Source of the DNA: Octopus vulgaris
Lineage: Eukaryota
DNA length: 64,000 bases
Assembly (NCBI GenBank): GCA_951406725.2
Contig: OX597830.1
Coordinates: 46,190,001 to 46,254,000 of the forward strand
Direction of reading: 5' to 3'
Program-made: the position numbers and the translations under genes
Notes under the pieces: generated by a model
Databases searched by the model: none
The model's input: the letters and a program-made list of their open reading frames with translations, nothing else
What the model was told of the DNA's origin: nothing
Part shown: positions 12,533-52,892 of the stretch, in pieces
Layout of the letters: each line of letters opens with the position of its first letter
Numbering within the stretch: the stretch's first letter is position 1

Positions 12533-15500
12533 TATATATAAACCTAATATAAGGACTATCCTTATCTGAGTTAAATTATCAGTATAAATATCAATACTAA
12601 AGGCATATTAATGATATATTAATATAAATAAATGGCAAAATCATTCAGATGTATTATTCATCAATACAAATGAAATAATAGCAATCTACTTACATTAATC
12701 AAAAAGAAATTTACTTGCATGGCTACAGGCTAAAATTTTTTCAAAATGTCTGTTCAAAGGCGATTTGCAGGAAATAAATATTTGATATGATTGTTCAGTA
12801 CCCAACTCTCATCTTTTGTTTGCAATATTATAAGACTGAACATGGCTAATAATATTCCAGTCCAATTTAAAATCTATTTTTCTTATCCTTTAGCTACCAT
12901 ATGAATTTACTCAGACCAGTTAAGTTAATCTTTTTTCTATTAAGTGGTCAGAAAACTGAGTTTTGAATTTATTAGATATTGACCCAATGTATGTATACTC
13001 ATTAAATCCATCAATCTCACATTTATATACAATATTATCTTCATTATAAAGATTTTTAAGTTGGCATCTACCAAATCAATTACAGGATTCATTATTGTCA
13101 AGTTTTCTGTTATTTAAAGATGAAGTTATTCAAAATAAATTTTTGGTTAAGCAATGACCAATCCTGATATTGTTATTAATTATTTGCCTATATCTATTAT
13201 TCATGTTGAAGTGCTTATCAATTATTTATATATTTGTCTAATTAATCTTGTCTTCATATGCATAGCATAAGGGATTATACACCAAATATAATTAGGTCTA
13301 TTATTATTATTATTACTAGCACTAGTGCTAGTTTTGTACTAAATCCCTTTCTTTTTTTTCGGAAATTATGTTCGCCTTTCCATCACATATATTTTTTAAA
13401 ACGTTTGACTGAGCCTCTGCAGATTCTGAGCCCACCCAGAGGTGCAGCTGCACTGGGTAATTAATCATCGCAAATTTGGTGGCTTTGGTGAAGATGAAGG
13501 GAGAGCATGTTAGAAAATCGATAAAGACCACCATGAAAGCAAACCTTCACCAACAAAATGAAATGAATAATCAGGGCTGGCAAAGTTTTCAAATTTCCTA
13601 GCGAGCGGAAAAATGTGACTGGAAATTAATTAGCATCTCAATTTCCACTCGTATCTCAAAACACAAAAGCATGAAATTTCGCTTAAGAAAATCTTTGTAT
13701 CTTAGGTCATTCGTACCTCAAGTTGGGGCTAAAAGGAAAGGTTGCAGTCAATTTAAATGTGGAAACCCACAAGGAATAGTTTTATTGTGTTTCCACTGAT
13801 TGATTGGCAATTTTGGTAAATTTGAATCAAATTAAGATTTCTTGCACCAAAAGGATCACCCTGAAAACCCTATGCCCCTGCTGTGTAGGTAGCAAATGAT
13901 TCGATCTTAGGCTGAATGCAAACAAACGTTTTTTATTAAAATTCTTGGTGGGGGGTCAACTTACTCATTTTTCATTTTTAATCCTACTTGAATAAAACAT
14001 CCTGGGTTCTCTCGCTGGATAACTTAAATCAACAGAAAGCCTAAAAGTAAAGCCCTTCCTAAATAGATTCATTGAATAGGCTCCAACTCTTTTATAGCAC
14101 ACTTAAGGAATGATAGCATATCAAGTATATTTGGTCTTTCATGAAAATCCCGTTCTCTTGTCATTCACTTGGTCTGACTCGTTAATTATTCCCCGCATTT
14201 CTCAAATCAAAAAAGCTTGCACGTTTAAAAGCCAAAACACATGATAACACGTCTTCGCAAAACACAAAAATGCGCTGAAACAGACAGACTGTCTGCAAAT
14301 GCGCACGCACATTCAACTGTTGGGCATAAGCGGTCAGATTATCGATTTTTTTTTTAATGGCTTTCTGGGGTGAAATGAAAAAATCTTCATGACCACCCTC
14401 AGACAGTTTTGAAAGCCATAAACGACAGAAAGAAGGATGGTGTAAAGGGGGGGGGTGTAGTTTGCTGTTGATCGAAATACCTGGGTATTTTCAATGCAAG
14501 GAATATCAAAAGTTGTCAAAATCGTTTTCTTCAGTCGATATTTGATGACAAGAAAATTTTATTAGTTTTTTACTTCTGATACAACAATGTAAGCATTTAT
14601 GAATTTTCTTCTGAACAAGATGCTAGCTTATTTCAAAAAAACATTCAGGTTCCAATGTAAATTGAAGGAATGTAGAATTAAGTGTACTGACCAAACATGC
14701 AATAAAACATTTGCTCTACATTTAAAACCAATCAGTTTGCTATTCAATATGAGTTTCACTTCCCTCTTTCTAATCCCTGAAATAGGTCTACGAAAGTGAT
14801 GAATTCTACCAGATTGCTGATGAATTTGGTGTGATGATATGGCAGGACTTTATGTTTGCTGTAGCTCTCTACCCAGACACTCCACAATTTCTGGCATCTG
14901 TCAAAGATGAAGTTGTTTATCAGGTAACGCACACACAGTTTTTTTTTATTTTTCTTGTACTTTCTCTTCTTTCCTCTTGGGGTTTTACTTCATTTTTTTC
15001 ATTATCCTTTTATTTCTGGTTTTCTTTTCAGTTCTTTTTTTTTTTTCATTCTCTTCTTTCATTCTGTTGTTTATTCTCTTTCTACCGTTCTCTGCTTCTT
15101 CTATTCTGTCCTTCTGTTCTATCACTTGTCTCTTAGATTTTCTTTTAATTTATTTTTTTCTGCAGTTTTTGTATCTTTTTCATCTGTTTCTAAATTCTTT
15201 TATATTGTCATTTTTCTTCCTTCTTAAAATTTTTTTTTATGATCTTGTTTTTCTCTTTCTTGAAAACATCACCAATCATAACATTGCTTACTCTAGCTAC
15301 ATCAGTGTCAGGAAACAAAAAAAAAAAGAGAAAGAAAGGAAGAACCTTTATGTGGTGGTTTGGTCTACTAGAAATAGCAACCAAATGAAAGGATGATCAT
15401 ATTAGTAATGCCTTTGACCATAGGTCTTCTCTATGGCAATAGGACTGACCAAAGGCTAACAAAACAATATCAATACCAACTACAGAAGGAGCTTTTACAA

Positions 15501-16353
15501 GGCTGCTTGATCTGCTAGAAATAGTAGCCAAATCTCCCTTAAATCCCACACTACCATCTTGAAAAGAAGAAGGGCTCATTAGATAATGTATTCTCTTAAA
15601 AAAACTGGATAGTTTTAAATAACATTTTGTTTTGTCTGGGGTGGGTCATTCTCTTTTAGTGCCTTATAATTTGACACACTCACCAGTAAAGTTTCCACTC
15701 ATTTACTTATCTTTTCTAAAATTTTCGTTGGGTCTTGCAACCTTTTCAATAGTCATTGACTCTGTCCGTTATCCAATCTGCATTCTTTTTGTTTGCTTGT
15801 GTGCACATACACATGTACATATGTATGTATGCAAGTGTGTGTGTATGCATGCATGTGTGCATATGTATATATGTATATGTGTGTACGTTTGTATGTAATC
15901 TGCATATTCATGTGTTTGTGAGTTCGTGTTTTTGTGTATGTGTGCGTGTGTGTGTGCTCACGCCTCTGTCTCCTTGTGTGTGCATGTCTGAGTTTGTCTG
16001 TATGGGTTTTTGTGACTATTTAGTGTGTCTGTATGTATGGATGTGTGTCTCCATATTTGTCCTTGTGTGAAGTGTGTGTGTATATGGTCACCTGTTTCGG
16101 TCTTCATTTATGTATGTATATCTGTTAATATTCCCCTTGTACCTATCCGTCTTTATGTCTATCTGTTTACATTCATATCCATTTACCTACATGCATACAC
16201 ATATATGTATATATACACACATCTACATAACAGCCCAGTACTTATTCTATCGGTCTCTTTTTGCCGAACCGCTAAGTGATGGGGACATAAACACACCAGC
16301 ATCGGTTGTCAAGCAATGCTAGGGGGACAGACACAGACACACAAACATACAGG

Positions 16354-16413
<60 letters not shown>

Positions 16414-16991
16414 TACATATATACGACGGGCTTCTTTCAGTTTCCATCTACCAAATCCACTCACAAGGCTTTGGTCGGCCCAAGGCTATAGTAGAAGACA
16501 CTTGCCCAAGGTGCCACGCAGTGGGACTGAACCCGGAACCATGTGGTTGGTAGGCAAGCTACTTACCACACAGCCACTCCTGCGCCTGAAATATATAATT
16601 TCAATACATGTGTATATTTAAGGATAAACTACTAGGTGGATAACCATATGCTAGAAGATCACCTAGTGGTTTATCCCTAAATATACATATGTATTAAAAT
16701 TTTTTCTGATTTTTCAGATTTTTATATATGCTAGGCTACTGGTTTTAAATTAATATTAATTGAATTAATTTTCAATTTATCTCCCTCATGTGACCTCGTG
16801 TGTACCGTTGGCTATTTTTTTTTTCCTCTGTCTTCCCTTCTCGGGATCTTTCCTTCTCCTATGTTTCCGATGAAGAGCTCCGCTAGAAACGTTAAACCCT
16901 CCTTCTTCCCTTCTTTCCTGAGCGTCCAATAATACTATATTTGTTCCACGTCCTCGCGTTGTTGTTTTTTTTTGTGTTTTCTTGTTTGGAT

Positions 16992-17058
<67 letters not shown>

Positions 17059-20000
17059 CCATATTGATATGGCAGTCTTATAGATATAAGACTAAAAGCT
17101 GTCGCTGATTAGCTCCATGAGGCCATCGCCTTAAGATAGCTATTTGACACACAAACTGTGTCCATTATAACCTTCGAACAAGGGAGGTCAGCCGCTTCAC
17201 ACTGCCAGTCAGACAGCTACAGACGCGTTTCGGGGTATTTGCCCTTTGTCAATGTAGCGTAGTCGACCCAGCAGGTGTCACCACTGATCGTCTCTGTTCG
17301 AAGGTTTTATTTACCTAGTTTCGGTGGAATACTACGCTACATTGACAAAGGGCAAATACCCTGAAACGCGTCTGTAGCTGTCTGACTGGCAGTGTGAAGC
17401 GGCTGACCTCCCTTGTTCGAAGGTTATAATGGACACAGTTTGTGTGTCAAATAGCTATCTTAAGGCGATGGCCTCATGGAGCTAATCAGCGACAGCTTTT
17501 AGTCTTATATCTATAAGACTGCCATATTAATATGGCGATAACAATTAATTTCCAGTAACGCTGCTGTAATCTCTTTTAGAGAGACTTAGTAATTTTAATA
17601 TTTCTATTATATAATATATATATATATATAAAATAACATGTTGATCTAAAAAGATGGAGCCTTTAAACTTTGCTCATTCAGGGTTGACATGATGCTAAAT
17701 AATATTAACACTGTTCCTGCTGCTCTTATTTTTTCCCATTCTTTGTTTACTTTTCCTTTTTGCTTTGTTTATTACTTTTTGTTTATTTCCTTGGTAGGTT
17801 CGTCGTTTGATGCATCACCCATCTATTGTTATTTGGGCTGGAAACAATGAAAATGAAATTGCTCTGGTAAACGGATGGTCAGTTTGTTGATATTTAAGCT
17901 GTTCTTCACACACACTAATAATAATAATAATAATAATAATCCTCTCTAGGACAGGCACAAGGCCTGAAATTTAGGGAAGGGTGCAAGTCAATTACATCGA
18001 CCCCCCCCCCCCCTGGTACTTATTTCATCAGCCCCAGAAGGATGAAAGGCAAAGTCGACCTTGCCAGAATTTGAACTCAGAACATAATGGTAGACAAAAT
18101 ACTGCTAAGCATTTCACTCGTCATGCTAAAGACTCAGCCAGCTAGCTACCATTTTAATAATAATAACAGTTTCAAAAATTTTGATACAAGGGTAGCCATT
18201 TTAGGGGAGGGGGATGAGTTGGTTAAGAGGTGGGCTACTAACCCCAAGATTCCAAGTTCGATTCCAAGCAGTGACCTAAATAATAATAATAATAATAATA
18301 TCGAAAAATACCTTAGGAATGAGAACCCAGGTTTGAAATTTCCCCAAGACACCTGATGAAGGCTGGAAGGTATATCAGCTGCAACGTTGTGTTAACAACA
18401 AACAAGATATGGTCAAATGTCTGTCAAATGTAAATAATGTAACTTAGAAAGGTTGAAAGACAATCATAATAATAATCACCCCTGATATCATCCCCACTAC
18501 CACCATCTGTAAAGTTAATTTCATCAACATTACCCTCCTCATCACTACTGCTCTAACACAGCATCATGCCTTTCCCTGTGTCTTTTGTTCTCCTTCTTTC
18601 TCTCTCTTCTGCTCCTGTCATTTGGTTCTATTTGTTGGAAGATTGTCTCCTCACTGGAGTCCAGATCAACCCAGCTTCAATTGTTGATTTATACATTGTC
18701 TGTCTGGTATTTATTTTTTATGATTTGTCTGTCATCTGGATATTTATTCTAGTTGTTTATTGTACGGAATATTGCTTCCATTATTTATATTTGATTTATT
18801 ATACAATAGTTCTATAAATTGTTTTAGCCGTATTGCTTACATGGTATGAATGTAAGCAATGTGTCTGTAGAAATAGCATTCTTGTGAACAGAAAAACAGG
18901 CAACACATTTTTCAGTCCTTGATTGGGATTTTAAGAGCCATGAAATAAAAGATAGTTGGCACATCAGTAATTTATTTTTTATACAGAATTCTGTACAATA
19001 TATAGATACAGGGGACAATTGCAACACACTGCATCACACAACATAAAACACAGCTTGACAGAAAAACCTAAGTAAACAGCACACCTGTATTAAACTGAAT
19101 TCTTTCCCAAAAGAAGCAATTAATGATGGAAACAACACTCATAGCACAATAAACTCCCACAAATACATGAAATAATTTCATACTAATGCAGGAATCCTAA
19201 ACAAATATAAACTAATGCAATGGCTTATCCGAATATACCATGAAATAATTGCAGTGTATTTAAACTCAGGATAATGAGGTTGTCCAATTATCTTATCTAC
19301 AAAGGCCACATTTTTCTTTTTACTTTCCGGAGGGTGAGTTTTGTTTTTTAAAACAACCATTTCCTAAGTAGTTGTAGATAATGTATTTTGGATATTAGGA
19401 AAATGGTGGTGAGGGTGATGAGAAGGAGGAGGAGGAGGAGGAGGTAGAGGAAGTTGATGATTTGTTAGCTCTCAACCCTTTTTTTCACTTGCTTTTAGTA
19501 ATTGTATCTTTTTCTTTCTCTTTCCTCAGGTTCCCTCTCAGCTTAGAACATTACAAGAAATATCGGGAAGCCTACATCAAGCTATATGTAGACACAATTG
19601 GTACTAACGTCATGAAGGAAGATAACAGCCGTCCATTTGTGACATCAAGCCCTTCAAATGGGGTCAAAACGAAATCAGACGGAGGGATTTCGCCCAATCC
19701 TGCTTCTCAAAATTATGGCGACAGTAAATAACTTTCTAATTATTTTTTTTTATTTGATTTCATGCATCGAGTGAGACCATATTTGGCTGATTTGGTAAGT
19801 ACTGGATAATCAGCTAGAGGTGTGGAGTTCAATTCCTGTAATTCGCACTACATTTAACTCTCCAATGGACAAGTCCACCTTGCTGGAAAGAGGGACATAA
19901 AATTGGATCAAGTTATGAAAAATCAGTTTTTCATAGAAATAAAAACACTTTCATGTCACTGACTGGATGTGAACCCTTGACTGCTTTGTTACATTTAATG

Positions 20001-22059
20001 CTAATGTCTTTTTGTTTCTCCTACTTCAGTTCACTTCTATGATTATATAAGTAATCTCTGGCTGGATTCCAGTATCCCAATACCACGCTTTGCATCAGAA
20101 TATGGTATCCAGTCATGGTGTTCTTACTCTTCATTGGTGCCTTTGTTAAACCAATCAGCTCTGAAGTATTGGAGTAACTTTACCATTCACAGACAACATC
20201 ATTTAGCAGGTAAGAACCAGCAATATTCATCTTCTCAGTTTTGTAATTCTCAGTTTAGATGTTAATTTTCTTCTTACTGCAAAATGTATTCAGTTTAATT
20301 GTAGAATTTTGCCAGAAGATGGTAAAATGTCTAATATTTTGATAATCTTAACTCTCTCCTCTCCAATTGACTAAAATCTGACCTCTTCAATCCAGGCCTT
20401 ATGGATAAAGTGCAAATAGAACTAGGATCTAAGGAAACTGGTGATGGGCTGTATTAGCAAAACTGATTTGGCAAGGATTCCATATTTCAACAAATTTCTG
20501 TTTTGAAATGGTAAATTTAACCTGTCCCTCTAATATTTGCATTCATTTAATGGATTCTGCAGTTTCTAGCACTGAGACCAGGTCTCTGTTCTGAGTATTC
20601 CTTCATTCTTATTTCTCTCTAAGTTTGGAAGATCTGAGAAGGGCTATTAATGCTGCCCTTTGTTCTACCAGCCTTGGAGGCTTTGAAAAGAATTGTGGGT
20701 ATTGTCCTTTCACTGCTAAGCTTTAAGAGAAGCTAAAGAATCTTTGTTTCAACAAAAGGTTTTGTTAAACTCATCAGGATTCTTGTCTTCTTGTAACACA
20801 CAAAACTTCACTTTGATCTTGGTCAAAGGTTAAAATCTGAAAATTTTGCAAGTTAAATTTATGTAGACTAAGGTTATTTATTTCATGCATTTTCTAAGAA
20901 ATTTCATTTCCTGAAATATTATGGAAATGACAAACCAAACTTGCCTTGTCTTTGATGTCAATCTGTCAAAGGTGGTTGTTTCACAAGAATAATTCTGCTC
21001 AATACCCAACGTGTCGGTGGCACGTAAAAAGCACCATCCGAATCGTGGCCGAAGCCAGTGCCACCTCGACTGGCTTCCGTGCCGGTGGCACGTAAAATTC
21101 ACCAATCCGACCGTGGCTGATGCCAGCCTCGCCTGGCACCAGTGCAGGTGGCACGTAAAAAGCACCCACTACACTCACGGAGTGGTTGGCGTTAGGAAGG
21201 GCATCCAGCTGTAGAAACACTGCCAAATAAGACCGGAGCCTGGTGCAGCCTTCTGGCTTCCCAGATCCCCGGTCGAACTGTCCAACCCATACTAGCATGG
21301 AGAACGGACGTTAAACGATGATGATGTTATTATGAGCCAAATGTGAGAGCCTCCATAAGGTCACTCAAGATGTTAGCAATAGCAGCTAAATATCCTTAAA
21401 ATCACACCTTATTGTTTGAAAAGAGAATGGGCATGTTGTATGATGTTGTTTAGAAAAGTAAAAGGAAAATAAATATATTGATGGTCCATAGGTCTACTCA
21501 TTCAAGGCCAACCTGGCGTTAAACAACAACAACCTTGAGCCTACAAAAAAGCCTTCTCTACTTTGTCATTCAACTTGTTAAAAATAGCAACTAAATTCCC
21601 TTTCAATCACACCTTAGCATCTTGGAAAAGGGGAGTGGAGATATTGGATGTCCTCCAAGAACAGCCATAAAGACAGGGTGGATCAGAATTGATCTGGAAT
21701 GAAACAACAACAACAGCAGCAGCAGCAACAATGTCTTTACTACTAAAATCACCTACTTCCAGCAGTGAGTTGGAAGTAGGTCATTTTAGTGACCTGTTAA
21801 CAGCTTGGTGCCTGATTAGTCGAGAACTGTGTGCATTGTTCATGGACACAGTTCAATGCTTGTGACATATTCAGAATTATTGATCTCTCAGATAAAACAT
21901 CCAACTTGCTTAGCTGTGGCTCTTTGATATTGCCATTTTATTCTTTTACTCAATTTAGCAATTGTCATGTGTTCCACAGTTATGGGACACAAACAGGATA
22001 CCATTCCTTCTAAGCAGTATGGATGGATGAATAGGCAAACAGACAGTCAGATGGGGGGA

Positions 22060-22101
<42 letters not shown>

Positions 22102-25100
22102 CACACACACACAAGTATGTATGCACACATATGATAGGCTTCCACACAATTTCCAGCTACCCATTTCTCTCAGAAAGTTTTGGTTGGCCAAAAGCTATAA
22201 TAGTTGAAAACATTTACCAAAGATGCTAGACAGTGGAAGGAACCTAAGGCTATGTGGTTACTAATTGATCTTCTTAGCCACACCGCTACACCTGTGTCCT
22301 ATAGAAATAAAACTGCAAAGTTAGGTCTCCTCTTCTTCTTCTATTAGAATTCTTTTCACATCAAGGAGACATTGTAGGAATATTGGTCCCATAGCTGCAA
22401 AGTTATGTTTATACTTCATCACCATCTGTTTTCTATACTAGGATCCAATGAGTCACAAGATTGCATCAAGCTTCAATGTCTGTTTTGGTAAGGTCTCTGT
22501 AGCTGGATGCCTTTCCTAATGCCCAACCACTCAACAGTGTGTATTGAGTGCTTTGCACATGGCACCAACAGTGATGAGAAGTTGACAAGTAACTTACAAA
22601 ATAAGAGAGAAGTGAAAAGCTCCCTTCACTGAGTGGAGGAGTATTTGAGAGAGGAGGAGGAGGGAAGCAGCTTTGTGTTTTTAGATGTTGATAGGCTAAA
22701 GTGTGATAGAGGGACGAGAATAGATGTCTTGCAACTGGGGAGATCTATGGCTACCCCATATTATATAAGGGTGGATGGGAGTAGCCTGGAAGACGATTAA
22801 GATGTTGATGATGAGGTACCAGAGTAAAGTCTGAAGGTACAAGAAGGTAAGTTTAAAAGAGAATACAGAGAGTGGATCAGGGGTAAGGAGAGGTGCTTGG
22901 ATCCTTTCATGAGAGGGCGAGAAGAGAAATCAGGGATGGAGAGCTAAAAAGGGTGGAGGTGTGGTTGACATGGCTCAATAAGGAGGGATGACAAAGAAGA
23001 GGAAGGGAGCTGCAATATCATATATCTGTGGATAGATCAGAAAGTAGGGAGACGATTGAGTGGGAGTGGGGTGGAGATGTACAGCGACAGTGAGCAGAAC
23101 AGCAAAAGGTGGGGGTGGCATTGATGGCAAGTTTAAGAGGGTATTGAGAGTGAGAGCAGATATGAGAGGTGGAAACAATGAGATACGGCAGAGAAAGAGT
23201 GAGAGATAACTGAAAGTACAGAAGGGGAATTATTATTGAAAAATAGGGTGGGAGGGGGTGAGAATGAGGGATGGATGTTAATAGGAAGTGACTCCAGAGG
23301 GAGAAAAGGGTGACAGGTTATGGAAAAAGATGGGGATGAAATATGTTCTGATTCTACTCTTAAATGATTGCAGCAACAGAGTAGTGCCACAGTTAGGAGA
23401 ATGATGGGGGGATTAATGTTAGGAAGATGAGATGCAGGGAATACTTGACAAGGCAGAATGGATGCAGAGTTAGGGTCCAACATGTCTAAGCATAAACAAA
23501 ATACTCATAAGATCTCAATTTTGCCATGGGGGAGAGATCTTCTTGAGCACAGAAAATTGCCTTCTATTATAATTCCATTCACATCTAGAATACATTCACC
23601 CAATATGTAACTGGTATCTTATTTTAACAACTCCAGGAGGAGGAAAGGTTACTCTAACCTTGGTGGATTTGAATTCAGAATGTGAACCGTTATAGTATTT
23701 TGCAAGGGATTTTGTCCAGTGCCCTGAGGATGATTCTATCAATTCACCATCTTTTCCATAAAATGAAATAAAACTTTCTTTTATATCCCTTTGCTTTCTT
23801 TATATTCTCTTTTTTTTTCCCCAGGGCAATTGGAAATGGAAGCAGAAATTTTGCAACACTTTGACCTTCCACCTTCTTCAAAGAAATTCAAGCATAAAAC
23901 CTTTCAGGATATTATATACCTTACACAGGTATAATTGTTTCTTTTTTTTTTTTTTTTAAACTTAACACCTTACTTTCAAATAACCATCATCATTGTCGTC
24001 GTCATTTATCTTCCATTTTCCATGCTGGCATGGGTTGGATGGTTTGACAGGAGCTGGCAAGGCTGGAGAGCCATGCCCGGTTCCATTGTTTGTTTTGGAA
24101 TGGTTTCTATTGCTGGATGCCTTTCCTAATGCCAACCACTTCAGTGTGTTCTGGCTGCATTTTATGTGGCACCAGGGCTTTTTACATGGAACCATCACCA
24201 AATGGGGTCACCAAGTACCTTGCAAGACAAAGAAATATTATGGAAAACTTATTTATTACACAGAGATGCCATTTTCCAAAAATAAACAATAATTAAGTTA
24301 GTGTTTATATATTAATGAAGTAAACATTAAAAAAATTAACTAGAAATGGTTACGTAGTATTAGCAATATTATTTTATCAACATATTTTGGCAATCATGGG
24401 AGACAACTCTGAACATGTTTTATTGTTATGATATCATCAGTGGAACATAAACTTCACAATGCTTGCCAAATTAGTGATGGGAGAATCACAAAGTAAACCA
24501 TTGAGGTTGGCAGAGAAAACTGGTATCATTTAGAGAATAATGTGCTTATTTGTACGCCCTTAATAAAGTTTCACATATTACAGTCTCATTATTTACATTT
24601 GACAGAAATTTGTTATCTTGTTTGTTGTTAACACATCTCGGCTGATATACCCTCCAGCCTTCATCAGGTGTCTCATTCCTAAGGTATTTTTCGATGCTAT
24701 TATTATTATTCAGATTACTGCCTGGAATCGAACTTGGAATCTTGGGGATAGTAGCCTGTGCTCTTAACCACTACGCCATATGTCCATGGGCAATTATGGA
24801 GTGAATTTTAGGGCTTATAAATCTAATATTCGCCTATCCTTCCTCAATACCGGTTCCCATATGCTATTCATATCTGCACTCAGTCTGCTTAGGAGGTTGT
24901 TGTGTCCTAGCATATGTGCTGCTCCTTTTAGTTTTCGTATTTTCCAGTGATGAAGGCTGGAGGGTATATCAGCCAAAACGTGCTAACAACAAACAAGATG
25001 AGGACTAATATCCATCAAATGTAAATAATGTACATAATTCCTCATCTCTTAAATATAGAACTGTATTACAGTCCCATTTAAACAAGACATTTACCTTCTG

Positions 25101-28100
25101 AATATCCTCTGTTGTGAATCATTAAAGGAGCTTCTATGTTTACTGAACTACTAGAAATGACACCCTAATCACTCACAAAACATATGCTACCGTCTAACAA
25201 AGAAAAGAAAAGAAACAAACAAAAATAAGTTTAATAATGCAGTCCTAAATATATTATATACGACGAGCTAGGATGGCCAGAGCTGAAACACCTTTCATCA
25301 TAGGTATGTGTGTGCGCATGCACACACACACAAAATTTCATAGGACTTTAAGTAATTAGAACCAATTTGAATTATTTCCAATTAAGCACAAGATGAAATA
25401 GTTTTGGTCATTAATTCTTGTCTTTGAATTGTCTTCTTTGTATCTTAGAATTCTAAGATGTTATTATTTCTTCTTGTTTTTCTTTTTGAGATAAACCAAG
25501 CGATGTCAATCCGATTTGAAACAGAAAGCTATCGTAGACATCAAAGTGAAGTGGTCAATGGACTTGGAATAACTATGGGTGCCCTCTATTGGCAATTAAA
25601 TGATATTTGGCAAGCTCCAACTTGGTCTTCTATTGGTAAGTTCATAGGAGGAAGCAAAAATTTTTTTTTTTTTAAATCAGAAAATTTTTTATTTTCTTTC
25701 CTTTTTTTTTGGTCAGGATTTTTCATTTTTCTCATCACCATCATCATTGTTAGCATCAACATCATCATACAATCACCACTATGATCCTCACCATAACCAA
25801 CATTATTTATAACGATCACCATCATCACTAGCACTATTATCATCATCATCGCTGGTAGAATCGAGCTGTTAGAAGGCGGCGAGCTGGTAGAATCGTTAGC
25901 ACGCCGGGTGAAATGCGTAGCCGTATTTCGTCTACCGCTACGTCCTGGGTTCAAATTCCGCCGAGGTCGACTTAGCCTTTCATCCTCTCGGGGTGGATAA
26001 ATTAAGTACCAGTTGCACATTGGGGTCGATATAATCGACTTAATCCATTTGTCTGTCCTTGTTTGTCCCCTCTGTGTTTAGCCCCTTGTGGGTAGTAAAG
26101 AAATATATCATCATCATCACTATCATCTTCATTGTCATCGTTATTAATATTACCATAATCAAAAATAATTTCTTATTTAGGCACGAGGCCATGCATTTTC
26201 CAATTGGAATTTAATAAACTAAATGAACTTCAGGATTTAACTCATGCCTCCCCCTTTATCTTACATGGAAGGAAGTCAACTTTGGTGGGATTCTCACTCA
26301 GAATATCAAAGAACATAAATAAACACTCTATGCATTCTACTTAATCCACCATAATCCAATAATAATAATTATTATTATAATCATCAATAATAATAATAAT
26401 AATAATTATTATAATCATCAATAATGATAATAATAATTATTATTATTATAATCGTCATTAATAATAATGATAATAATTATTATAAATGTTGATAATAATT
26501 ATTATTATTATAAATGTTGATAATAATAATTATTATTTTTAATGTTGATAATAATAATTATTATTATAAATGTTGATAATAATTATTATTATAAATGTTG
26601 ATAATAATTATTATTATTATAAATGTTGATAATAATTATTATTATTATAAATGTTGATAATAATTATTATTATTTTTAATGTTGATAATAATAATTATTA
26701 TTATTAATGTTGATAATTATTAATGATGAAAATAATGATGAACGTTATTAATAATGATAATTATTAATGATGATAATAATTATAATTATTATTTATGATG
26801 ATGATGATTATTATTATGAACGGTGTTAATAAGTATTATGAATGGTGTTAATGATAATAATTATTATTATTGATGGTGATAATAATAATCATTATTAATA
26901 ATAATGATTATTATTAATAATGATTAGAGGTATAAGAATAATAATTTGTTACATTAATACTGCACCCCACAATCTGAACGTTGGTGGTAGAGACGATTGA
27001 AAAGACAAACTTTTTTACTTGATCTGAAGCAAAGGGGGACTGTTCATCATCATCATCGTTTAACGTCCGTTTTCCGCGCTAGCACGGGCTGGACGGTTCG
27101 ACCGGAGTCTGGGAAGCCAGAGCTGCACCAGGCTCCAGTCTGATCTGGCAGTGTTTCTACAGCTGTATGCCCTTCCTAACGCCAACCACTCCGCGAGTGT
27201 AGTGGGTGCTTTTTACGTGCCACCTGCACAGGTGCCAGTGGGGGTCTGGCATCGGCCACGATCAGTTGGTGCTTTTAACGTACCACCGGCACGGAAGCCA
27301 GCCAAGCCGGCACTGGCATCGGCCACGTTCGGATGGTGCTTTTTATGTGCCACCGGCACAGAAGCCAGTCGAGGCGGCGCTGGCAACGGCCACGTTCGGA
27401 TGGTGCTTTTTATGTGCCACCGACACAGGTATCACAACTACTGTTTCCATTGACATTTGTTTCGATGTTCGTGTACATGCACTTGACTCAACAGGTCTCC
27501 TCAACCACAGTGAGTTCATGGCTAATAAAGATTTCAAAGGTGTTATTATTGTAGGGTAGGTGTGAGAGGCTGGATCTGACCAGTTTGAACATAAAACTGG
27601 TAGACTATTTTTGCTTGATGTGGCTACTTTAAATGCTAAAGGGTTAAATATGAATACTTTAAAATTGGCAGGTGACCATCAAAAGAAACAGGGCTGCTTT
27701 CACATTTCCATGGTTGAAACATCTACAAAACATGTTTTTACAGTAATTAGATATTAATTAGATATTAATAGAACGGCACCGATCCTCTTTTGTGTGTTGC
27801 ATCAGGAATTTTATTTCAAACAGGAAACATTTTTATAAATAAATAAAAATGTTTACATGAAAGGGACAGAATTAATTGATTTAATAAAATATAAAGTCAA
27901 TGATAGACAGCGTGTGTGTGTGTGTGTGTGTAAAACTGTATTTTATAATATAAATGATATAAACACTCTAATTTACCTAGCTTCTAAAGCATATCTTTAT
28001 ATATAAAACTGTAGTTGTGTGAGTGTCTGTCCCCCTTCGATTTAGATTCCTAACTACTCCCACATTTTATAGTCGTGATTCATATCAAGCCCTTCTGGGT

Positions 28101-28997
28101 ATTAGCGCGCGTCTACGATGAGTCTACGATTTTAAAAATAATTTACCATCATTTTTTTCCATTTTAAGGCATATTTTTTTAAATATAAGGAAAGTAACTC
28201 TCTAAAAATGTCTACGATGAGTCAACGATTTAAAAAAAAATTTACCATAATTTTTTTTCCATTTTTAATGCATTTTTTGCTATTTTTTGGCTATAACTCT
28301 CTAAAAATGCTTTATAGTTATTTCCCTTACAAACCCGAGCAACGCCGGGCGATACTGCTAGTATATATATATATATATATATACACACATGTATTTTTTT
28401 CTCTCTTGCAGAATATGATGGAACATGGAAGATGCTTCATTATTATTCTAAAAAGTTCTTTTCCCCTGTTTTGATTTCACCATATTTTGTTAATGAAAAG
28501 ATGCTTTATATAAATATGGTTGTGGATGGTATTCCAATCAAAGAACACAGGCGGTCAGATGGTAGCCTAGAAATGGTTCCACTCAACATCTCCAAAAGTA
28601 AGAACTCAGTACTGACTGGCACTTTACAGGTGAAGTTATATAATTGGAAGAACCGAACCCCAGTGAAAAGCTGGACCCAAAAATATAGTGTAAGTATTTG
28701 GATGAATTTAAGGGAAATATTTTTGGTTTTTTTTATATATACTTTGTAACTTGCGGCAACACTCAAAGAAATTTTGAGTAGGTGCAGGAGTGGGTGTGTG
28801 GTAAGTAACTTGCTTAAAAACCACATGGTTTCGGGTTCAGTCCCACTGTGTGGCACCTTGGGCAAGTGTCTTCTATAACCTCGGGCTGACCAAAGCCTTG
28901 TGAGTGTATTTGGTAGACAGAAGCTGAAAGAAGACTCTCGTATATTTTTATGTATATATATATATGTATGTATATATATATATATATATGAATGTAT

Positions 28998-29029
<32 letters not shown>

Positions 29030-32000
29030 GTGTGTATAAGGATGAAAAGGAACACACGAGTTGATATATATGAAAAAACAAGTCAAGATAGAAAATGCTA
29101 AAATAATTTTATAAAGAACATTTCAGTACCGGTTTCAGTCATTTTGAAACCTTTTCAACTGTAACGATTAAATAATTAAATTTAGAAAAATTAAAAGAAA
29201 AGGTTTTTTAAAAGAATATTTGCCACTTCCATTAACACGCAAATAGTGAGTGGTGTTCCGCAAGGCACTGTTCTGGGACCACTACTGTTCATAATGGCCC
29301 TCTCAGACATGCCCTCAGCCATGCAGAGAGCCACGATCACAAGTTATGCAGATAATACAAAAGTTTCACAGGCAATACAGAACCCTGAAGACACTAAGCA
29401 CCTGCAATGTGAGCTGGACAAAATATACAAGTGGGCTGAAAAGAATAGCATGCAGTTCAATGCTGCAAAGTTTCAAGCTTTATACTATCAGCATGCAAAA
29501 CTAAATGCAATACCCAATAAATACACTGGACCTGGAGGGATTGCAGTCCCAGAGGCACAATCAGTGCGAGACCTGGGTATTTACATGAGTGATGATGCAA
29601 CCTTTCATGTGCATGTTGCTAAATTGGCAATGAAATGTAGGCAGCTGACCGGATGGATTCTTAGAACCTTTAGAACAAGAGACCAGGAAACCATGATGGT
29701 CCTCTGGAGGACACTTGTCCTAAGCCACTTTGACTATTGCTCTCAGCTATGGTCACCATCCAGTGTCAAGTTAATCACAGAACTTGAGGCGATCCAACGA
29801 AGCTACACGAAGAAGATAGCCTCTGTGCAGCATATAAGCTATTGGGAAAGACTCAAGAGATTGAGACTCTATTCCTTAGAGCGTAGGCGAGAAAGATATG
29901 CCATAATATACATCTGGAAGATCCTAGAAGGACTTGTCCCAAACTTTGGCATTGAGAGTTACACAAAGCCAGAACTGGGCGCCACTGCATAGTGCCAAGG
30001 ACTCCAAATTTGCCATCAAGATGTAGGACAAGATACTGTGATAGCCTGGGCTTCCGAGGCCCACAGCTCTTCAATATCCTCCCGAAGAACCTAAGAGACC
30101 TGCATGGGGTGGATGCAGATGTCTTTAAAATGAAACTGGATCTCTTCTTGTCAGGTGTCCCAGATGAACCAACTTCACGGCAGGAGGTGCAGATGAGGGC
30201 AGCTGCATCGAACTCTCTCATGCACCAGATGGCATTTGCTAAAAAGCATTCGTGAAGTAAAATCATGTAGCAACACCAAATGGCAGTGCCCCAGCATGGC
30301 CACAGCTTGTGAGCTAAAACTAAATAAAATAAAAAAAAAAGATAAAAATAAAATAAATAAATGTGTGTGTCCCCAATGTTGTTTGTGTGTGTCTGTGTCC
30401 CCAATGTTGTTTGTTAACCATGCCTCTCTCTTTCTTTGAATATAGTTAGACAAAACTTCAGATGTTGTTCTCAAAATTCCTGCATCAGAAATTGTGGACC
30501 ACAAGAAATGTTCTCTTACATCATGTTTCTTGTTTTTCTCCTTGGATTCTGAGGATTCTGTGTCAACATCTTGGTTGCCGCTTGGTCGTCTTGTACCTTC
30601 AGGAGGAATCCCATTTGCAAAAATAAAGGTATGGCATTTGAAATGAATATTTGTCAATTTTGCATATTTTAAGTCGCTTGACATGCTAGAAATAGCAGCC
30701 AAATTTCCCTCAGTTCTATAAAGCAGGACATATTGGATGATGTAGTCCGGTGGCTTTTTTGCCATTTGATAAGAATTTCAAAAAATTTTTTTTGTCTTGG
30801 GAGTTTAATTCTATTTAACATGAGAAAAGAGCTTAGAAATTTATATTTCAATCTTGGTTATTGTGGCATTGGCCAAATATTTATCTTAAATGTTTTCCTT
30901 GGCCAACAAATACAGGATTGCTTTCCAATATCAATTTTAGAAAATAGAAATTGCTGAAGAAATGGAAATTATTCATTGAAAGAAACATTTTCTTTCAGAA
31001 TACGTAAGAACAGTAAAATAGTGAGCAGTCTATCTGATGTTCTTCCACTATTCTGAGTTTGAATCTTGCTAAAGTTGCATTTGTTTTCCACCTCTCTGAG
31101 GTCAGTAACCTGACAATAGACTGAATACTCTTTACTTTGCCACACTCCTATAATATTAGTCTTACACAAATAAAAAAGATACCGTGCCTACTGAATTCTT
31201 GTACTGCCTTCTATCTATCCCACCAACTATTTCACTGATTCAAAAGTGAGTGGGTCAAGAGGATGCCCATCCTTGCATATGAGTGGTCGCTGTAGTTATT
31301 ATACAAGTAAAAGGCCCTAATTATTTTTGAATCTGTATTCCGATCGTACTGGAGTCAACTTTGTGTTTGATCCTCCTCCTGACGTTAGCTAAAAATTAAA
31401 TTTCATGGAATTGATTTGAGTCCACTCTTCTTTTTACAAAACTGGCCTTTTATCCAAGAAATCATTTACTTGGCTTTGGAGTAAGTAAAAAAACTTACAG
31501 CCAGTGCACAGTCATGAGTTCACTCTGGAATTAAATTCAAGAAATAGTTCTACAAATTCCCTAAAACATAAGCTTACTTCACATTCAACTTAAAATAAAG
31601 ATCAAACAAACAAGAATTTCACCAAACTTCCGAGGGTACTTTAGAATCATCAGACTAAGCAAATATCACAGAAAGCTCTCGGACCTGTCCACAGTTGATA
31701 AATTATAAAGAGTGTGCCTTCTATGACTTAGTTCATTCCCAGAATCACTATGGAATGATTTTAGAGAGATAGTCATGGTTCAACAAGACTCCAGTGATAG
31801 TTAACTTGTGAAGGTTTTAAAATACTTTTTTCTTTTTCCACATAGAAAAATACATTGACTTAACCCTTTTGTTACTGTGTTTCTTTCAATTAATTTTAAA
31901 TATAACAAAGAATTTAGTAAAATAACTTAGTTATCGTTAAGCTAGTCTTAGAAACATAAATAGTGACTAAGATTTGGTGGAAGATTTTAATTCAAAACTT

Positions 32001-32554
32001 ATGGAAACAAGACATTTTTAATACAGAGCCAGAAGCAGTTTCAACTGGGTTGGTAACGAAAGAGTTAACATTTAATTTTAAAGTATTTTTTATTGTGTTG
32101 GATTGATTGTTACTGATGAAGGTTTACCAGAAATTCCTTGAATTTTATTTTATATTACAAAACACCTGATTCATACAGACCAATACTTGGTTCACAACAG
32201 ATCAACAGAAATTTGATTGTTTTTTCTTCCATATTCTATGCATATATGCTGCTCATATCGTTACTAACGTATTGGTTTCTTCAATTTCTCTCTCTCTCTC
32301 ACTCACAGATCACCAAAGTGGTTGCTGTAAGTGGTCGAAACAACACCTTCGATATTACACTTCAGAGTTCAGACATTGCTCCATTTGTTTGGTTAGAAGC
32401 TACTGGAATATTGGGGCGTTTCTCAGACAATGGATTCCTGATGATAAATGCAAGCAAATCTGTTGAATTCTATGCTTGGCAAAATGTTCCTGTGGATCAG
32501 CTGAAGACATCATTAACAGTGAAATCTTTGATGGATGTTTATGATAAAAGGTAA
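15..32554 (+). CDS. MANBA: Beta-mannosidase (GH2) gene, 5'-partial; 13 coding exons in window
   Basis: 13 GT-AG exons total 2125 nt and splice in one frame to about 707 aa plus stop. Motifs seen: [112 protein letters not shown]. Confidence 0.96.
820..945 (+). ncRNA. Degenerate type I hammerhead-like motif with long stem II
   Basis: CTGATGA (825-831) ... GAAA CAGCTG TT with a palindromic stem III; stems I and II are only partly paired. Confidence 0.4.
1031..1251. mobile_element. piggyBac-type MITE
   Basis: TTAA|CCCTTTAG...CTAAAGGG|TTAA. Related copies at 47760-47979, 48116-48333 and a partial one ending at about 27647. Confidence 0.85.
1685..1854 (+). CDS. MANBA: MANBA exon [14 protein letters not shown]...VIKIPK
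   Basis: aag acceptor after a pyrimidine tract and gtaaac donor; phase 1 in, phase 0 out. Confidence 0.85.
3511..4229. repeat. Diverged foldback element with arms of about 170 bp
   Basis: 3511-3680 is the approximate reverse complement of 4060-4229. Confidence 0.7.
4391..4600 (+). mobile_element. tRNA-derived SINE, family A
   Basis: GGCGGCGAGCTGGCAGAA head, GAGTTCAAAT B-box, GCCTTTCATCCTT...AAGTACCAG body, (ATT)n tail. Degenerate copies near 6025, 6665, 17945 and 48670. Confidence 0.85.
4640..5170 (-). mobile_element. 3' fragment of a restriction-like-endonuclease non-LTR retrotransposon (R4/Dong-like)
   Basis: Minus strand reads [10 protein letters not shown]...WPD...[11 protein letters not shown]...EK and [10 protein letters not shown]...[17 protein letters not shown], followed by a (TAA)n tail. 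Confidence 0.8.
6246..6417 (+). CDS. MANBA: MANBA exon [13 protein letters not shown]...[10 protein letters not shown]
   Basis: poly-T plus cag acceptor, gtaaat donor, GH2 motifs WWPHGYG and GFRTVEL. Confidence 0.95.
7800..8860 (-). mobile_element. RTE-clade LINE reverse transcriptase fragment, degenerate
   Basis: VGVHQG...PLLFIIV...[14 protein letters not shown], plus QFGFVPGR upstream; contains frameshifts. Confidence 0.9.
8994..9160 (+). CDS. MANBA: MANBA exon [24 protein letters not shown]...RVWGGG
   Basis: cag acceptor, gtaagt donor, conserved motifs. Absent from the ORF track; translated by hand. Confidence 0.96.
9456..9571 (-). ncRNA. Type I hammerhead-like motif with extended stem II (PLE pLTR-derived)
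   Basis: Minus strand: ACC-CTGAAGA-[about 80-nt hairpin]-GAAA-CAATTG-TA-GGT. Confidence 0.6.
10337..10558 (+). mobile_element. tRNA-derived SINE, family A, young copy
   Basis: Near-identical to 25875-26105 and to the reverse copy at 57638-57867. Confidence 0.9.
11393..11900 (-). mobile_element. RTE LINE 3' end (internal ~60-bp tandem units, (GAT)n tail)
   Basis: Same sequence family at 658-791, 21010-21326, 23984-24230, 27045-27515, 46903-47492 and 52331-52564; contiguous with RTE ORF sequence at 44495-45520. Confidence 0.8.
12190..13258 (-). mobile_element. Penelope-like element remnant: GIY-YIG endonuclease end with duplicated 3' segment
   Basis: Minus strand reads, with stops and frameshifts, IDKHF...NIVYKCEI...YIGS...FKT...[10 protein letters not shown]...WNII...CSHASKFL. 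12190-12432 repeats 12554-12788. Confidence 0.7.
13315..14545 (-). mobile_element. Probable non-autonomous Helitron-like insertion
   Basis: CpG-containing ~1.2-kb block with an 18-bp perfect palindrome ACTAGCACTAGTGCTAGT at the left end (CTAG|T terminus on minus). The other end is not canonical. Confidence 0.4.
14786..14923 (+). CDS. MANBA: MANBA exon [25 protein letters not shown]...YQ
   Basis: tag acceptor, gtaacg donor, WQDFMFA motif. Confidence 0.96.
16231..16586 (-). mobile_element. tRNA-derived SINE, family B (internal microsatellite)
   Basis: GGCGCAGGAGTGGCTGTGTGG head, GGTTCAGTCCC B-box-like motif, CCTTGGGCAAGT CORE-like motif. Confidence 0.88.
16790..16996 (+). mobile_element. PLE pLTR-like repeat with minimal hammerhead motif at 16863-16897 (core mutated)
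   Basis: GTTT-CCGATGA-A-GAGC tcc GCTA-GAAA-CG-TT-AAAC. Its 3' end matches 10970-11010. Confidence 0.6.
17216..17258 (-). ncRNA. Minimal type I hammerhead ribozyme motif, U3-A8 variant
   Basis: Minus strand: GCTACA-TTGACAA-AGGG caaata CCCC-GAAA-CGCG-TC-TGTAGC. Confidence 0.75.
17336..17378 (+). ncRNA. Minimal type I hammerhead ribozyme motif, U3-A8 variant
   Basis: GCTACA-TTGACAA-AGGG caaata CCCT-GAAA-CGCG-TC-TGTAGC: 6-bp stem I, 4-bp stem II, palindromic ACGCGT stem III, GUC cleavage triplet. Confidence 0.8.
17798..17877 (+). CDS. MANBA: MANBA exon [26 protein letters not shown](W), catalytic acid/base
   Basis: tag acceptor, gtcagt donor, GH2 WxGNNE motif. Confidence 0.95.
18220..18441 (+). 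mobile_element. PLE end: truncated tRNA-like cassette + (AAT)n + hammerhead motif (18349-18392, GAAA mutated to GCAA)
   Basis: GTTCGATTCC B-box, then ACAC-CTGATGA-A-GGCTG...CAGCT-GCAA-CG-TT-GTGT. Homologous to 24591-24790 (minus). Confidence 0.75.
19530..19723 (+). CDS. MANBA: MANBA exon FPLSLEHY...[11 protein letters not shown]...YGD
   Basis: cag acceptor, gtaaat donor, phases consistent. Confidence 0.95.
20030..20209 (+). CDS. MANBA: MANBA exon IHFYDY...[12 protein letters not shown]...HRQHH, catalytic nucleophile
   Basis: cag acceptor, gtaaga donor, FASEYG motif. Confidence 0.96.
23825..23928 (+). CDS. MANBA: MANBA exon [16 protein letters not shown]...IYLTQ
   Basis: cag acceptor, gtataa donor, HFxLP and IYLTQ motifs. 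Confidence 0.93.
24591..25063 (-). mobile_element. 5'-truncated Penelope-like insertion with inverted pLTR, tRNA-like cassette and hammerhead motifs
   Basis: Minus-strand ORF end [22 protein letters not shown]...IWEPVLRK...*, then A and B boxes, hammerhead motif at 24631-24671, inverted copy at 24948-25063, and 15-bp flanking direct repeats with one mismatch. Confidence 0.8.
25491..25635 (+). CDS. MANBA: MANBA exon [16 protein letters not shown]...[19 protein letters not shown]
   Basis: gag acceptor, gtaagt donor, YWQLNDIW motif. Confidence 0.95.
25875..26105 (+). mobile_element. tRNA-derived SINE, family A
   Basis: Matches 10337-10558. Confidence 0.9.
26358..26925. repeat. AT-rich minisatellite ((TTA)n-TAAATGTTGA-(TAA)n units)
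   Basis: Repeated ttattattataaatgttgataataa units embedded in AAT/ATT microsatellite. Confidence 0.85.
27994..28361 (+). mobile_element. Non-autonomous Helitron
   Basis: A|TC 5' end, subterminal hairpin CCCGAGC AAC GCCGGG, CTAG|T 3' end, no TSD. Confidence 0.85.
28412..28689 (+). CDS. MANBA: MANBA exon [19 protein letters not shown]...WTQKYS
   Basis: cag acceptor, gtaagt donor, WKMLHY motif. Confidence 0.93.
28781..28941 (+). mobile_element. SINE family B, 5' half
   Basis: Matches the head of 49534 and 52691. Confidence 0.85.
29121..29164 (-). ncRNA. Minimal type I hammerhead motif, U3-A8 variant (second family)
   Basis: Minus strand: TTACAG-TTGAAAA-GGTT tcaaaat GACT-GAAA-CCGG-TA-CTGAAA. 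Confidence 0.65.
29220..30345 (+). mobile_element. CR1-clade LINE, 5'-truncated (RT C-terminal half and 3' tail)
   Basis: [14 protein letters not shown]...YADNTK...RDLG...DYCSQLWSP...SLERRRER; one frameshift near 29965; A-rich tail. Confidence 0.92.
30446..30628 (+). CDS. MANBA: MANBA exon [12 protein letters not shown]...IPFAKIK
   Basis: tag acceptor and gtatgg donor; 183 nt open, phase 0/0, linking its neighbours. Confidence 0.85.
31864..32064. mobile_element. piggyBac-type MITE, second family
   Basis: TTAA|CCCTTTTGTTAC...GTAACGAAAGAG|TTAA. Confidence 0.75.
32309..32554 (+). CDS. MANBA: MANBA terminal coding exon ITKVVAV...APFVWLE...GRFSDNGF...SLMDVYDKR*
   Basis: cag acceptor, C-terminal MANBA motifs, TAA stop. 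Confidence 0.95.
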   Translation: MTKVVAVSGRNNTFDITLQSSDIAPFVWLEATGILGRFSDNGFLMINASKSVEFYAWQNVPVDQLKTSLTVKSLMDVYDKR

Positions 32555-32755
32555 CTAGAATATATATATAAATAGTGATAAATTTTTTAATCTACCCACA
32601 GACTTCCCTAGTTTTTGGTTTGCTTTAAAGTTTACACATTGTGTGTGTGTGTGTATGTATGTATGTATATATATATATATATATTTGCATGTGCACACAA
32701 ATATATATATATTTTGTGTTCAACCAGAAACACTTGTGTGAAAAATTGTTTATTC

Positions 32756-32761
32756 AATAAA
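32756..32761 (+). promoter_or_regulatory. Candidate polyadenylation signal of MANBA
   Basis: AATAAA about 200 nt after the stop codon, with a GT/T-rich tract at about 32815-32832. Confidence 0.5.
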
Positions 32762-34138
32762 AGAAAAAATTAACTTTAAAAAAATATTCAAAATTTTATT
32801 TTAAAAAATATAACTGTGTTTGTTCCCTTTTTATGGGTGGGGGCTGTTCAAACATATTTAATACATGTTCCTTTTGGAGGTGGGGATTCCTTCATACTTA
32901 ATGAATTCTAATAAATTTTAAGTAATTAAAATTACACAAGTAGTGAGGATGGAGAGGAGAAAAAAAATTTCATTAGATATATGAATATTTCTGGTCAAGA
33001 AATGCAAGGGACACAACTCTGAAATGAACTTAGAACTAAAAAGCAGTGGTGATTGAGAAGTTCATTGAAATAGTTGCAATATTTAATTTTATCCATCAAG
33101 GTTCCAATCTAAAACCCAACCATTATAAATTTTATTTTCTGTTCTTGCAGTATTAAGTGGATTTTCATCAAGAATATGCATTGCTCTACAAAAATTCATC
33201 TTATTAGAAGAAATCATTTCCACATTGCCTAAACGTATTGCAGTGTTTCCCCCGCCCCCTTTCTCTTTTTTGAATGGTTTAGTGAATGGCCCTTTTTAGG
33301 GCATTCTGAGATAGCAGGAAGTTGTCAACACACTGGAAACCTGGCTTAGAATGATGTTTGCATCAGGATGGGCTCCCTAAAGCTATCCAAAGGTCAATTG
33401 GTGGGATTAAAGTAGGCAACAGATCAAATGTACCATCCAATTTTATTCTCATTCACTTCACTAGATTCTGTGTTCAAATCCCACTGAAGCTGACCTCTGT
33501 GCTACATAGAATATCCAAGGGGCAATGTCATAGATTATATTCTTTATCTTAACAACAAACTGACTTTTTACTTTTTGGTAAATGCCATTAGTGACATTAG
33601 TTTTATGTGTTCTTTGCAAACTATTCACTCTGCAAGCTTCCGTCTGTATGTCGAGTTGCTGTTGGTTAACTTCATAGGAAAGTGACATATTTCTCGATTT
33701 TAATTCAAATGATTTTGCGAATAATGGGCCAAGCTTTGATTCACTTCATCTACATTCCCAGAATGACCAATATGTATATATGCAACTTGAGTGGATAAAT
33801 AGCACTAGTTTAATGGCACATTTTGTTGTATGTATATAAAAACCCATCCGACTTTACACTTTTCGCTCTCACTGTGTCGGTGGCACATAAGATACATACA
33901 TATGTAATGTAAATAGCTGTACACACAGCCAGCTCTCTACCTGGTGCAGTTTCAGCCTAATAAATTTCGCAGAATGCTCAGTGGGATTAAACCTGGAACC
34001 AAATTGTTATGAAACAAATTAGTTAAGCACACAGCCATGCCCGTGGTTTTACAAAAAAAATCAATAATCCAAATTGTCTTCCTCGTGTGTATATCACCCC
34101 AAGACACCTGTCAGCTCGGGCCACAGATTATAGTGGCA

Positions 34139-40444: not shown

Positions 40445-40475
<31 letters not shown>

Positions 40476-42256: not shown

Positions 42257-42287
<31 letters not shown>

Positions 42288-52670: not shown

Positions 52671-52690
52671 GACATACAAATATATATATA

Positions 52691-52861: not shown

Positions 52862-52892
<31 letters not shown>

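Follow-up and report, generated by a model that had tools for sequence, protein, structure and literature searches.

A dead, 5'-truncated and partly inverted Penelope/Poseidon-type insertion, belonging to an octopus-type and very abundant family, was found at positions 24576-25078 of the DNA analyzed here. This DNA (the window) comprises 64,000 nucleotides of Octopus vulgaris (GCA_951406725.2, contig OX597830.1, positions 46,190,001 to 46,254,000, forward strand), and positions are counted from its first letter. The insertion is intronic, within a beta-mannosidase gene and about 400 nt ahead of the exon at ~25476. Between the end of its open reading frame (ORF) and a minimal hammerhead it carries a tRNA-derived cassette with the A and B boxes of an RNA polymerase III promoter. 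This cassette is a feature of the family and not a nested short interspersed element (SINE), and our mapping supports an excess of ORF-less family copies that starts at tRNA +1. The parts listed in an earlier sequence-only reading, namely the target-site duplication (TSD), inverted arm, ORF end, A and B boxes, (AAT)n and hammerhead, were all recovered by motif mapping where that reading had put them on the minus strand, and the anatomy of the insertion as a family-wide feature is well supported. The annotated features are the following, the last being the second family copy in the window.

25064..25078, no strand: left TSD copy of 15 bp, identical to 24576-24590 at 14/15 positions
24948..25063, plus strand: inverted arm with the hammerhead 3' part (core damaged), the terminal stem-loop and the Penelope 'tail'
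24815..24952, minus strand: C-terminal end of the ORF and stop, the last 43-45 codons of a Penelope/Poseidon endonuclease; stop at 24817-24815
24786..24814, minus strand: 29-nt spacer separating stop codon and tRNA-derived head, with the family hot spot of 5' inversion junctions at its 3' end (24782-24791)
24713..24785, minus strand: tRNA-derived head, +1 at ~24785, cloverleaf decayed
24778-24768, minus strand: A box, 11/11 against the SINE promoter consensus printed in PMC8969392
24734-24724, minus strand: B box, 10/11 against the same printed consensus
24699..24710, minus strand: (AAT)x4 microsatellite, of varying length across the family
24672..24698, minus strand: linker; 25 nt of family sequence are gone at 24673 in this copy
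24631..24671, minus strand: minimal type I hammerhead with a helix I of 4 bp, a helix II of 5 bp and one extra base before helix II
24587..24630, minus strand: tail-less 3' end of the direct arm, its final 4 nt falling within the TSD
24576..24590, no strand: right TSD copy, a 14/15 match with the left copy
18220..18441, plus strand: second family copy, with the cassette cut within the A box, a longer (AAT)n, the full linker, a changed hammerhead core and a tail-less end

The A and B boxes are spaced by 33 nt, within the 30-35 nt range of SINEs, and lie near the 5' end. The box pair is beyond chance, with none found in 30 simulated windows of equal short-word content; a looser form of the pair occurred three times in the window, in both family copies and in an unrelated decayed repeat at 46602/46563. 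The pattern taken from the 18220-18441 copy retrieved 120 viral loci, 119 of which are tRNA genes (95 Ile, 10 Asn, 8 Met and 6 Lys). To avoid circularity, a tRNA profile was built from 13 neighbouring viral tRNAs without that pattern. Over the 64 kb this profile ranked the 18220-18441 copy first (E 0.0019) and the 24576-25078 copy second (E 0.0095), where its envelope begins at 24785, which is the tRNA +1. The best alignment scores for Ile, Lys and Asn lie within 2-3 points of each other, and the pattern itself biases the set of retrieved tRNAs. Other tRNA-headed SINE families with many copies occur in the window (16232-16600, 40286-40687, 42052-42467, 49517-49868, 52674-53087 and others), and their heads score under the cassette with the same profile.

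The cassette is thus tRNA-derived, yet it is no foldable tRNA. Its earlier description as a tRNA-like segment holds for the two boxes and the profile match and fails for the fold: ARAGORN at default found no tRNA in the cassette, Rfam gave no tRNA match for it, and folding of the two window copies produced no cloverleaf (fold z of -0.14 and +1.09). The intact acceptor, anticodon and T stems of a functional tRNA gene were absent from the window copies. At a lowered threshold (75%) ARAGORN did call the cassette, a call that we rejected as noise among 103 calls across the window. A blastn search of the cassette against phages returned matches at E=3 only. No run of four T was found on the sense strand from 24950 to 24587 or in the tail, which is weak evidence in so short a stretch. 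The (AAT)n that follows the head probably came with the captured SINE as its tail.

The stretch or part of it was contained in 20 of the 24 listed sequencing runs, which come from 13 studies. Three sets of DNA contigs (organisms A, B and D) and one raw RNA run (organism D) were mapped onto 701 bases, with 25,795-35,382 contigs placed per DNA run; 24 of the ~94,000 pieces, longest first, and the 15 best-supported of 386 joints were read individually. Twenty-two of these 24 pieces lie inside the element, and ten of the 22 span the coding end to beyond the B box. Each of the ten bridging contigs differs in 16-28 letters, and two of them look like one copy seen in two runs. Fifteen of the 22 element contigs carry at least 31 letters on each side of 24800. 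One listed piece (record 24, 2681 nt) reaches the A box and extends 2.5 kb on the ORF side. The spacer has 0.80, 1.17 and 0.76 of the ORF-end depth in the three DNA runs, and depth in the DNA runs does not fall past the (AAT)n (for example 1.55 versus 1.58-1.60 million in X1). A joint that skips the cassette alone was absent from the 15 joints listed, and no TSD of its own was found around the cassette, whose flanks share at most 5 nt of AT-rich sequence. The proposal that the module belongs to the family and is no chance nesting was therefore upheld by the bridging contigs, the depth and the missing TSD. The outcomes that would speak against it, which are a majority of members without the cassette, a TSD of the cassette itself and an upstream peptide unrelated to Penelope-like elements, did not occur in the data examined.

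Within the family, many copies were found to begin at the tRNA start. RNA depth falls from 1707 at 24757 through 1274 at 24786 to 761 at 24791, beyond which it holds at 749-852 as far as 24927 (a 2.2-fold step); the ratio of cassette to ORF-end depth in the DNA contigs is 2.76, 2.39 and 1.56. Nine of the 15 listed joints begin at 24782-24791 and are inversion junctions within 6 nt of tRNA +1, and they meet the inverted tail arm at no fewer than seven different positions. The letters between the two sides of these joints mostly follow the family majority, which places the breaks at ~24786-24787. The approximate doubling of depth at +1, together with the junctions within 6 nt of it, indicates that many copies begin where polymerase III would start. 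The joined short copies are Penelope-type insertions cut at that point.

The Penelope-like identity proposed for the peptide upstream of the cassette was borne out by protein matches to relatives that bear a reverse transcriptase (RT). The 43-residue window peptide matched P0001 at 84% and P0002 at 89% (named Octopus vulgaris), and it matched 79 cluster representatives at E up to 0.001. Against the RT-bearing P0005 (582 residues) it aligned to residues 541-578 with 61% over 38 aa. P0001 in turn shows 71-74% identity to the RVT_1-bearing P0003-P0005 and 81% identity to part of P0029 (named Octopus sinensis). Judged from these matches, the 43-codon frame is the C-terminus of an RT plus GIY-YIG family whose named members are from Octopus. 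The DKG motif (in P0005) and the GIY-YIG/CCHH residues were recognised by eye against the clade definitions in PMC8557442; Pfam gave no GIY-YIG match, and P0009, a relative, is named GIY-YIG by its source. By eye and without a tree, the linker between RT and endonuclease (EN) in P0004 and P0005 is seen to be free of the extra zinc-finger, unlike Neptune and Nematis as defined in the same paper. We also observed a frame that opens with ATG ahead of the hammerhead and runs through the hammerhead and tail, barring copy-specific stops (18319-18447 and 24950-25063, both on the plus strand). As happens in the anole element, the ORF may start with this frame, which would then be its N-terminus; a protein search with it gave no match.

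The ends of the insertion are those of a Penelope element, with an inverted 5' arm, a tail of 30-40 nt at one end, a TSD and an AT-rich target all present. A direct repeat of the quality of this TSD was reached by only 6 of 1258 comparable zone pairs in the window. The terminal tail, a known Penelope feature (PMC8557442; PMC11167929), occupies ~25031-25063 on the inverted arm, and the direct arm ends 33-37 nt sooner without it. In the read and contig mapping, loose ends show that family ends accumulate at 25065-25068, where they run into unrelated AT-rich flanks. Several contigs and reads contain a 57-nt tandem duplication of the element end (25007-25063), seen as a joint stepping back 57 nt. 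At the inner border of the inverted arm the protein match reaches 24952, so that the five bases at 24948-24952, which are common to the ORF arm and the inverted arm, represent microhomology at the inversion junction. The copy differs from the family majority at ~19-21 of 488 positions (~4%) among the rows shown and has four deletions in addition, which marks it as a dead copy of a fairly young family. The 25 nt missing upstream of its hammerhead are present in the 18220-18441 copy and in most family members, and loose ends at 24673 occur in 392, 373 and 273 contigs of the three DNA runs.

The 18220-18441 copy is the sole other member of the family in the window. The earlier claim that the tRNA-(AAT)n-hammerhead module recurs there is borne out by its alignment with 24576-25078, with the qualification that it is cut inside the A box. 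Comparison of its flanks revealed no convincing TSD. Both copies are intronic in the beta-mannosidase gene, the second lying in an earlier intron, and both are solitary, with none in tandem. The gene itself extends over 14785-32550 on the plus strand with at least seven exons (~14785, 17795, 19530, 20030, 25476, 28400 and 32200).

The hammerhead of the 24576-25078 copy is broken, with one core A altered and 3 nt including the cleavage triplet gone, and the core is damaged in each of the window's three arms. The family majority is an intact minimal core, as given by the loose-end consensus of 161-268 contigs in the three DNA runs and of 705 and 628 RNA reads. The hammerhead consensus offered in the sequence-only reading equals this majority and does not describe the 24576-25078 copy. 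Helices I and II pair in 23/23 cells, covariation being absent among the 3 rows; Rfam gave no hammerhead match, and exact hammerhead patterns had no matches in metagenome, viral and prokaryote contigs. By its predicted pairing the family hammerhead fits the minimal type of PMC4209133, which combines a palindromic two-base helix III with a short helix I and one additional base ahead of helix II. A single motif of this type showed no cleavage and dimers showed low cleavage (PMC4209133), and such hammerheads cut poorly and need dimers or protein (PMC4209133, PMC11167929). Cleavage in the octopus family is likely slow and dispensable for copying, and the suggestion of short self-cleaving RNAs is the weakest part of what had been proposed for this locus, minimal hammerheads being poor cutters. 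By eye, another minimal hammerhead, whose core is the rare U3-A8 variant of PMC4209133, was seen at ~17337-17377. It lies in a young insertion at 17054-17540 that has two 210-nt inverted arms, 99% complementary and 67 nt apart, and that is likely a second, unrelated Penelope-type family.

Among the repeats of the window, a tandem array of 16-codon (48-bp) units occupies 34935-35690 and is open in several frames. Fragments resembling, by eye, reverse transcriptases of long interspersed elements (LINEs) and a mariner-type transposase occur at 7851-8273, 29195-29992, 51535-52254 and 62594-63142.

On balance, we lean towards a reading, held to be slightly more likely than not, in which short templates would be made from the captured SINE head as their polymerase III promoter, and the protein and the ORF-bearing copies would come from longer transcripts. 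An ancestral source copy would have received a simple tRNA-derived SINE (head plus (AAT)n) in its 3' untranslated region and passed it on to the family. Across the family the boxes are kept at working spacing while the cloverleaf has decayed. In tandem source loci of the kind known from published Penelope anatomy, the 3' end of one copy would be the upstream pseudo-long terminal repeat (pseudo-LTR) of the next, and the cassette would thereby precede the hammerhead, the tail and the ORF start. Polymerase III would begin at about tRNA +1 and pass the hammerhead and tail into the 5' part of the ORF, where the element's protein would bind and begin reverse transcription. The protein-coding mRNA and the ORF-bearing copies would derive from longer, probably polymerase II, transcripts, and solo short copies would mostly be dead ends because they are without the ORF-side sequence for starting reverse transcription. 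The protein of the anole element requires ORF sequence past the tail, hammerhead cleavage being unneeded, and its reverse transcription starts inside the RNA at two tail-defining sites, with ATT targets preferred (PMC11167929). For Penelope and for Chlamys the transcription start is within the upstream pseudo-LTR (PMC8557442). Given such an internal start of reverse transcription and such a transcription start, a cDNA begun at the upstream tail would end at the transcription start, and a pile of 5' junctions at tRNA +1 is expected if the boxes set that start.

Several observations weigh against the promoter reading or against the breadth of the evidence for it. The RNA run displays neither a pile-up of starts or ends nor a strand bias (reads are equal on both mates), in a 150-nt paired cDNA library that may miss a discrete transcript. 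About 40% of the RNA reads over the ORF end have letters found in <3% of the DNA depth, which means that the RNA is dominated by a small number of host transcripts and that its step may stem from few loci. Nearby junctions are pooled onto 24782 by changes private to the 24576-25078 copy (at 24783 and 24786), the best-supported junction has a 4-nt microhomology, and a small hairpin was seen by eye, in majority letters, on the junction hot spot. As for the contigs, no full-length copy with both RT and EN was read jointly with the cassette, and the longest-first listing favours bridging pieces. Records 5, 7, 16 and 22 drop out of the alignment short of the B box, leaving 57-90 letters unaligned, which may represent older 3' ends or mere divergence. 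Since the depth of contigs does not measure copy number, the depth figures serve as ratios only.

In an alternative that we hold to be unlikely though well worth keeping in view, the SINE head would be a passenger fixed in the source 3' untranslated region without a role in transcription. The excess of starts would then result from RT stalling or template switching at the small GC-rich hairpin or at microhomology, or from a nearby polymerase II start. It would agree with the discrete RNA not seen in the one RNA run, with the microhomology at the top junction and with known Penelope promoters, which are associated with spliced transcripts (PMC8557442); the family is young, so its intact boxes may merely reflect recent capture. 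Less easily explained by a passenger are tRNA stems that have decayed around two boxes whose sequence and spacing still fit the SINE promoter consensus, junction partners at seven or more positions in place of a single microhomology, and a step within ~6 nt of +1. A combined arrangement, which we regard as distinctly unlikely, would be a protein-coding retrotransposon whose terminal repeat holds the SINE head as source-locus promoter, yielding ORF-bearing copies as well as a self-propagating, polymerase III-driven tRNA-hammerhead lineage. If true, it would be a Penelope-dependent SINE that has not yet separated from its autonomous partner, and would provide a way for retrozyme-like or Sm-alpha-like elements to obtain promoters.

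Little probability is given to a separate non-coding lineage (tRNA head, (AAT)n, hammerhead and tail) with source loci of its own, which would borrow the Penelope protein in the manner of Sm-alpha and would be a true Penelope-dependent SINE or retrozyme, its whole length common to the ORF-bearing family. Such a lineage would be compatible with a cassette depth 1.6-2.8x that of the ORF end, with the junction hot spot at +1 and with reports of retrozymes as non-autonomous Penelope derivatives (bioRxiv 10.64898/2026.07.22.740005). It would also suit the two common letters seen at several cassette positions, but several of these are CpG sites that may reflect methylation decay. The two window copies, moreover, are solitary and not tandem, and the only element tested in vitro needs template ORF sequence past the tail (PMC11167929), which is absent from the solo short copies. 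A processing signal, by which RNase P would cut at +1, end the ORF mRNA and free a short RNA for copying, would likewise place 5' ends exactly at +1, 30 nt past the stop codon. It is very improbable in view of the cloverleaf being absent by ARAGORN, Rfam and folding and of acceptor and T stems that, by eye, pair poorly even in majority letters. We attach next to no credence to an independent SINE having inserted in the 24576-25078 copy alone. Head and (AAT)n do resemble a complete simple SINE, but the identical join in the 18220-18441 copy and in nine or more different contigs of three runs, the lack of a TSD beyond 5 nt of AT-rich sequence around the cassette and the steady DNA-run depth past the (AAT)n mean that the contig and depth mapping has largely refuted it.

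The octopus family shares with the Penelope/Poseidon clade, for example the anole Poseidon_Ac, the order of RT and C-terminal GIY-YIG in its close relatives and the minimal type I hammerhead (PMC11167929; PMC4209133), as well as the inverted 5' arm, the tail of 30-40 nt on one arm, the AT-rich targets and the TSD (PMC11167929). It adds to these a tRNA-derived A/B head and (AAT)n between stop codon and hammerhead, which are not reported in the available text of PMC11167929 and PMC4209133. Locus searches with the protein yielded L001, a distant relative at 40% identity, along with two weak matches in prokaryotes. In this relative, a metagenome contig, 3000-3480 holds the broken end of a distantly related Penelope endonuclease, after which come two hammerhead-like motifs ~90 nt apart; the tRNA profile gave no match past its frame. 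A survey of O. vulgaris repeats lists 190 Penelope-like families that make up 6.83% of the genome, and the cassette arrangement goes unmentioned in the portion available. The available parts of PMC7229834, PMC6962438, PMC8967140, PMC4758252 and PMC3531059 likewise contain no report of it, and two family motifs were not present in a supplement of PMC8557442. No ORF-bearing Penelope with such a cassette was encountered in the literature searched, which did not include most subscription papers, Repbase, Dfam, the SINEBase table or Ohshima and Okada 1994.

The definition of a SINE in SINEBase, a non-coding element dependent on a partner LINE, does not describe these copies, as ORF sequence is present in 24576-25078 and the short copies terminate in inverted tail arms of Penelope type. 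It is possible that the short form of the octopus family has already been named as a SINE. Ohshima and Okada (1994) reportedly described the octopus tRNA-derived SINEs OK, OR1 and OR2, which likewise have tRNA-derived heads. OR2 is a CORE SINE (PMC4758252). Animal non-LTR retrozymes are likewise short non-coding hammerhead units related to Penelope pseudo-LTRs (PMC7229834, PMC7761336, bioRxiv 10.64898/2026.07.22.740005). They are tandem, give circular RNAs and are said to be without a promoter of their own (PMC7761336), whereas the octopus copies were observed as solitary or as inverted pairs and have promoter boxes. No tandem hammerhead units were found in the window, and the mapped contigs are too short to show arrays; the sole duplication among the joints listed is that of the 57-nt tail. 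The available text of the preprint that treats retrozymes as non-autonomous Penelope derivatives (bioRxiv 10.64898/2026.07.22.740005) contains neither 'tRNA' nor 'promoter'.

Very few Penelope-like elements have had their transcription characterised, and the literature describes animal retrozymes as lacking promoters. Whether a protein-coding retrotransposon runs partly on polymerase III, and whether SINE-like partners of Penelope arise through capture of a SINE head into the pseudo-LTR, are here both testable in one abundant element. For annotation, short copies of the family would be classed as tRNA SINEs and longer ones as Penelope, each class being a large fraction of the genome.

The closest precedents are Sm-alpha of Schistosoma and TRIMp3, both non-coding. 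Sm-alpha/Sj-alpha is a high-copy retroposon in which a hammerhead likewise directly follows a tRNA-derived polymerase III promoter; Sm-alpha is non-coding and often tandem, with a canonical hammerhead (PMC6765202, PMC2770079). The octopus module, in contrast, is joined to a Penelope ORF end, with a minimal hammerhead, Penelope-type ends and common ORF-linked copies. In TRIMp3 (Cassandra, Helenus and Ajax) a polymerase III promoter derived from a small RNA is likewise found in the terminal repeat, and its origin through SINE insertion has been proposed; these are non-autonomous LTR elements whose autonomous partners are expected to be without such repeats (PMC10886601), whereas the octopus cassette occurs in ORF-bearing copies of a non-LTR-type Penelope element. 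New here are the step in depth and the inversion junctions at tRNA +1.

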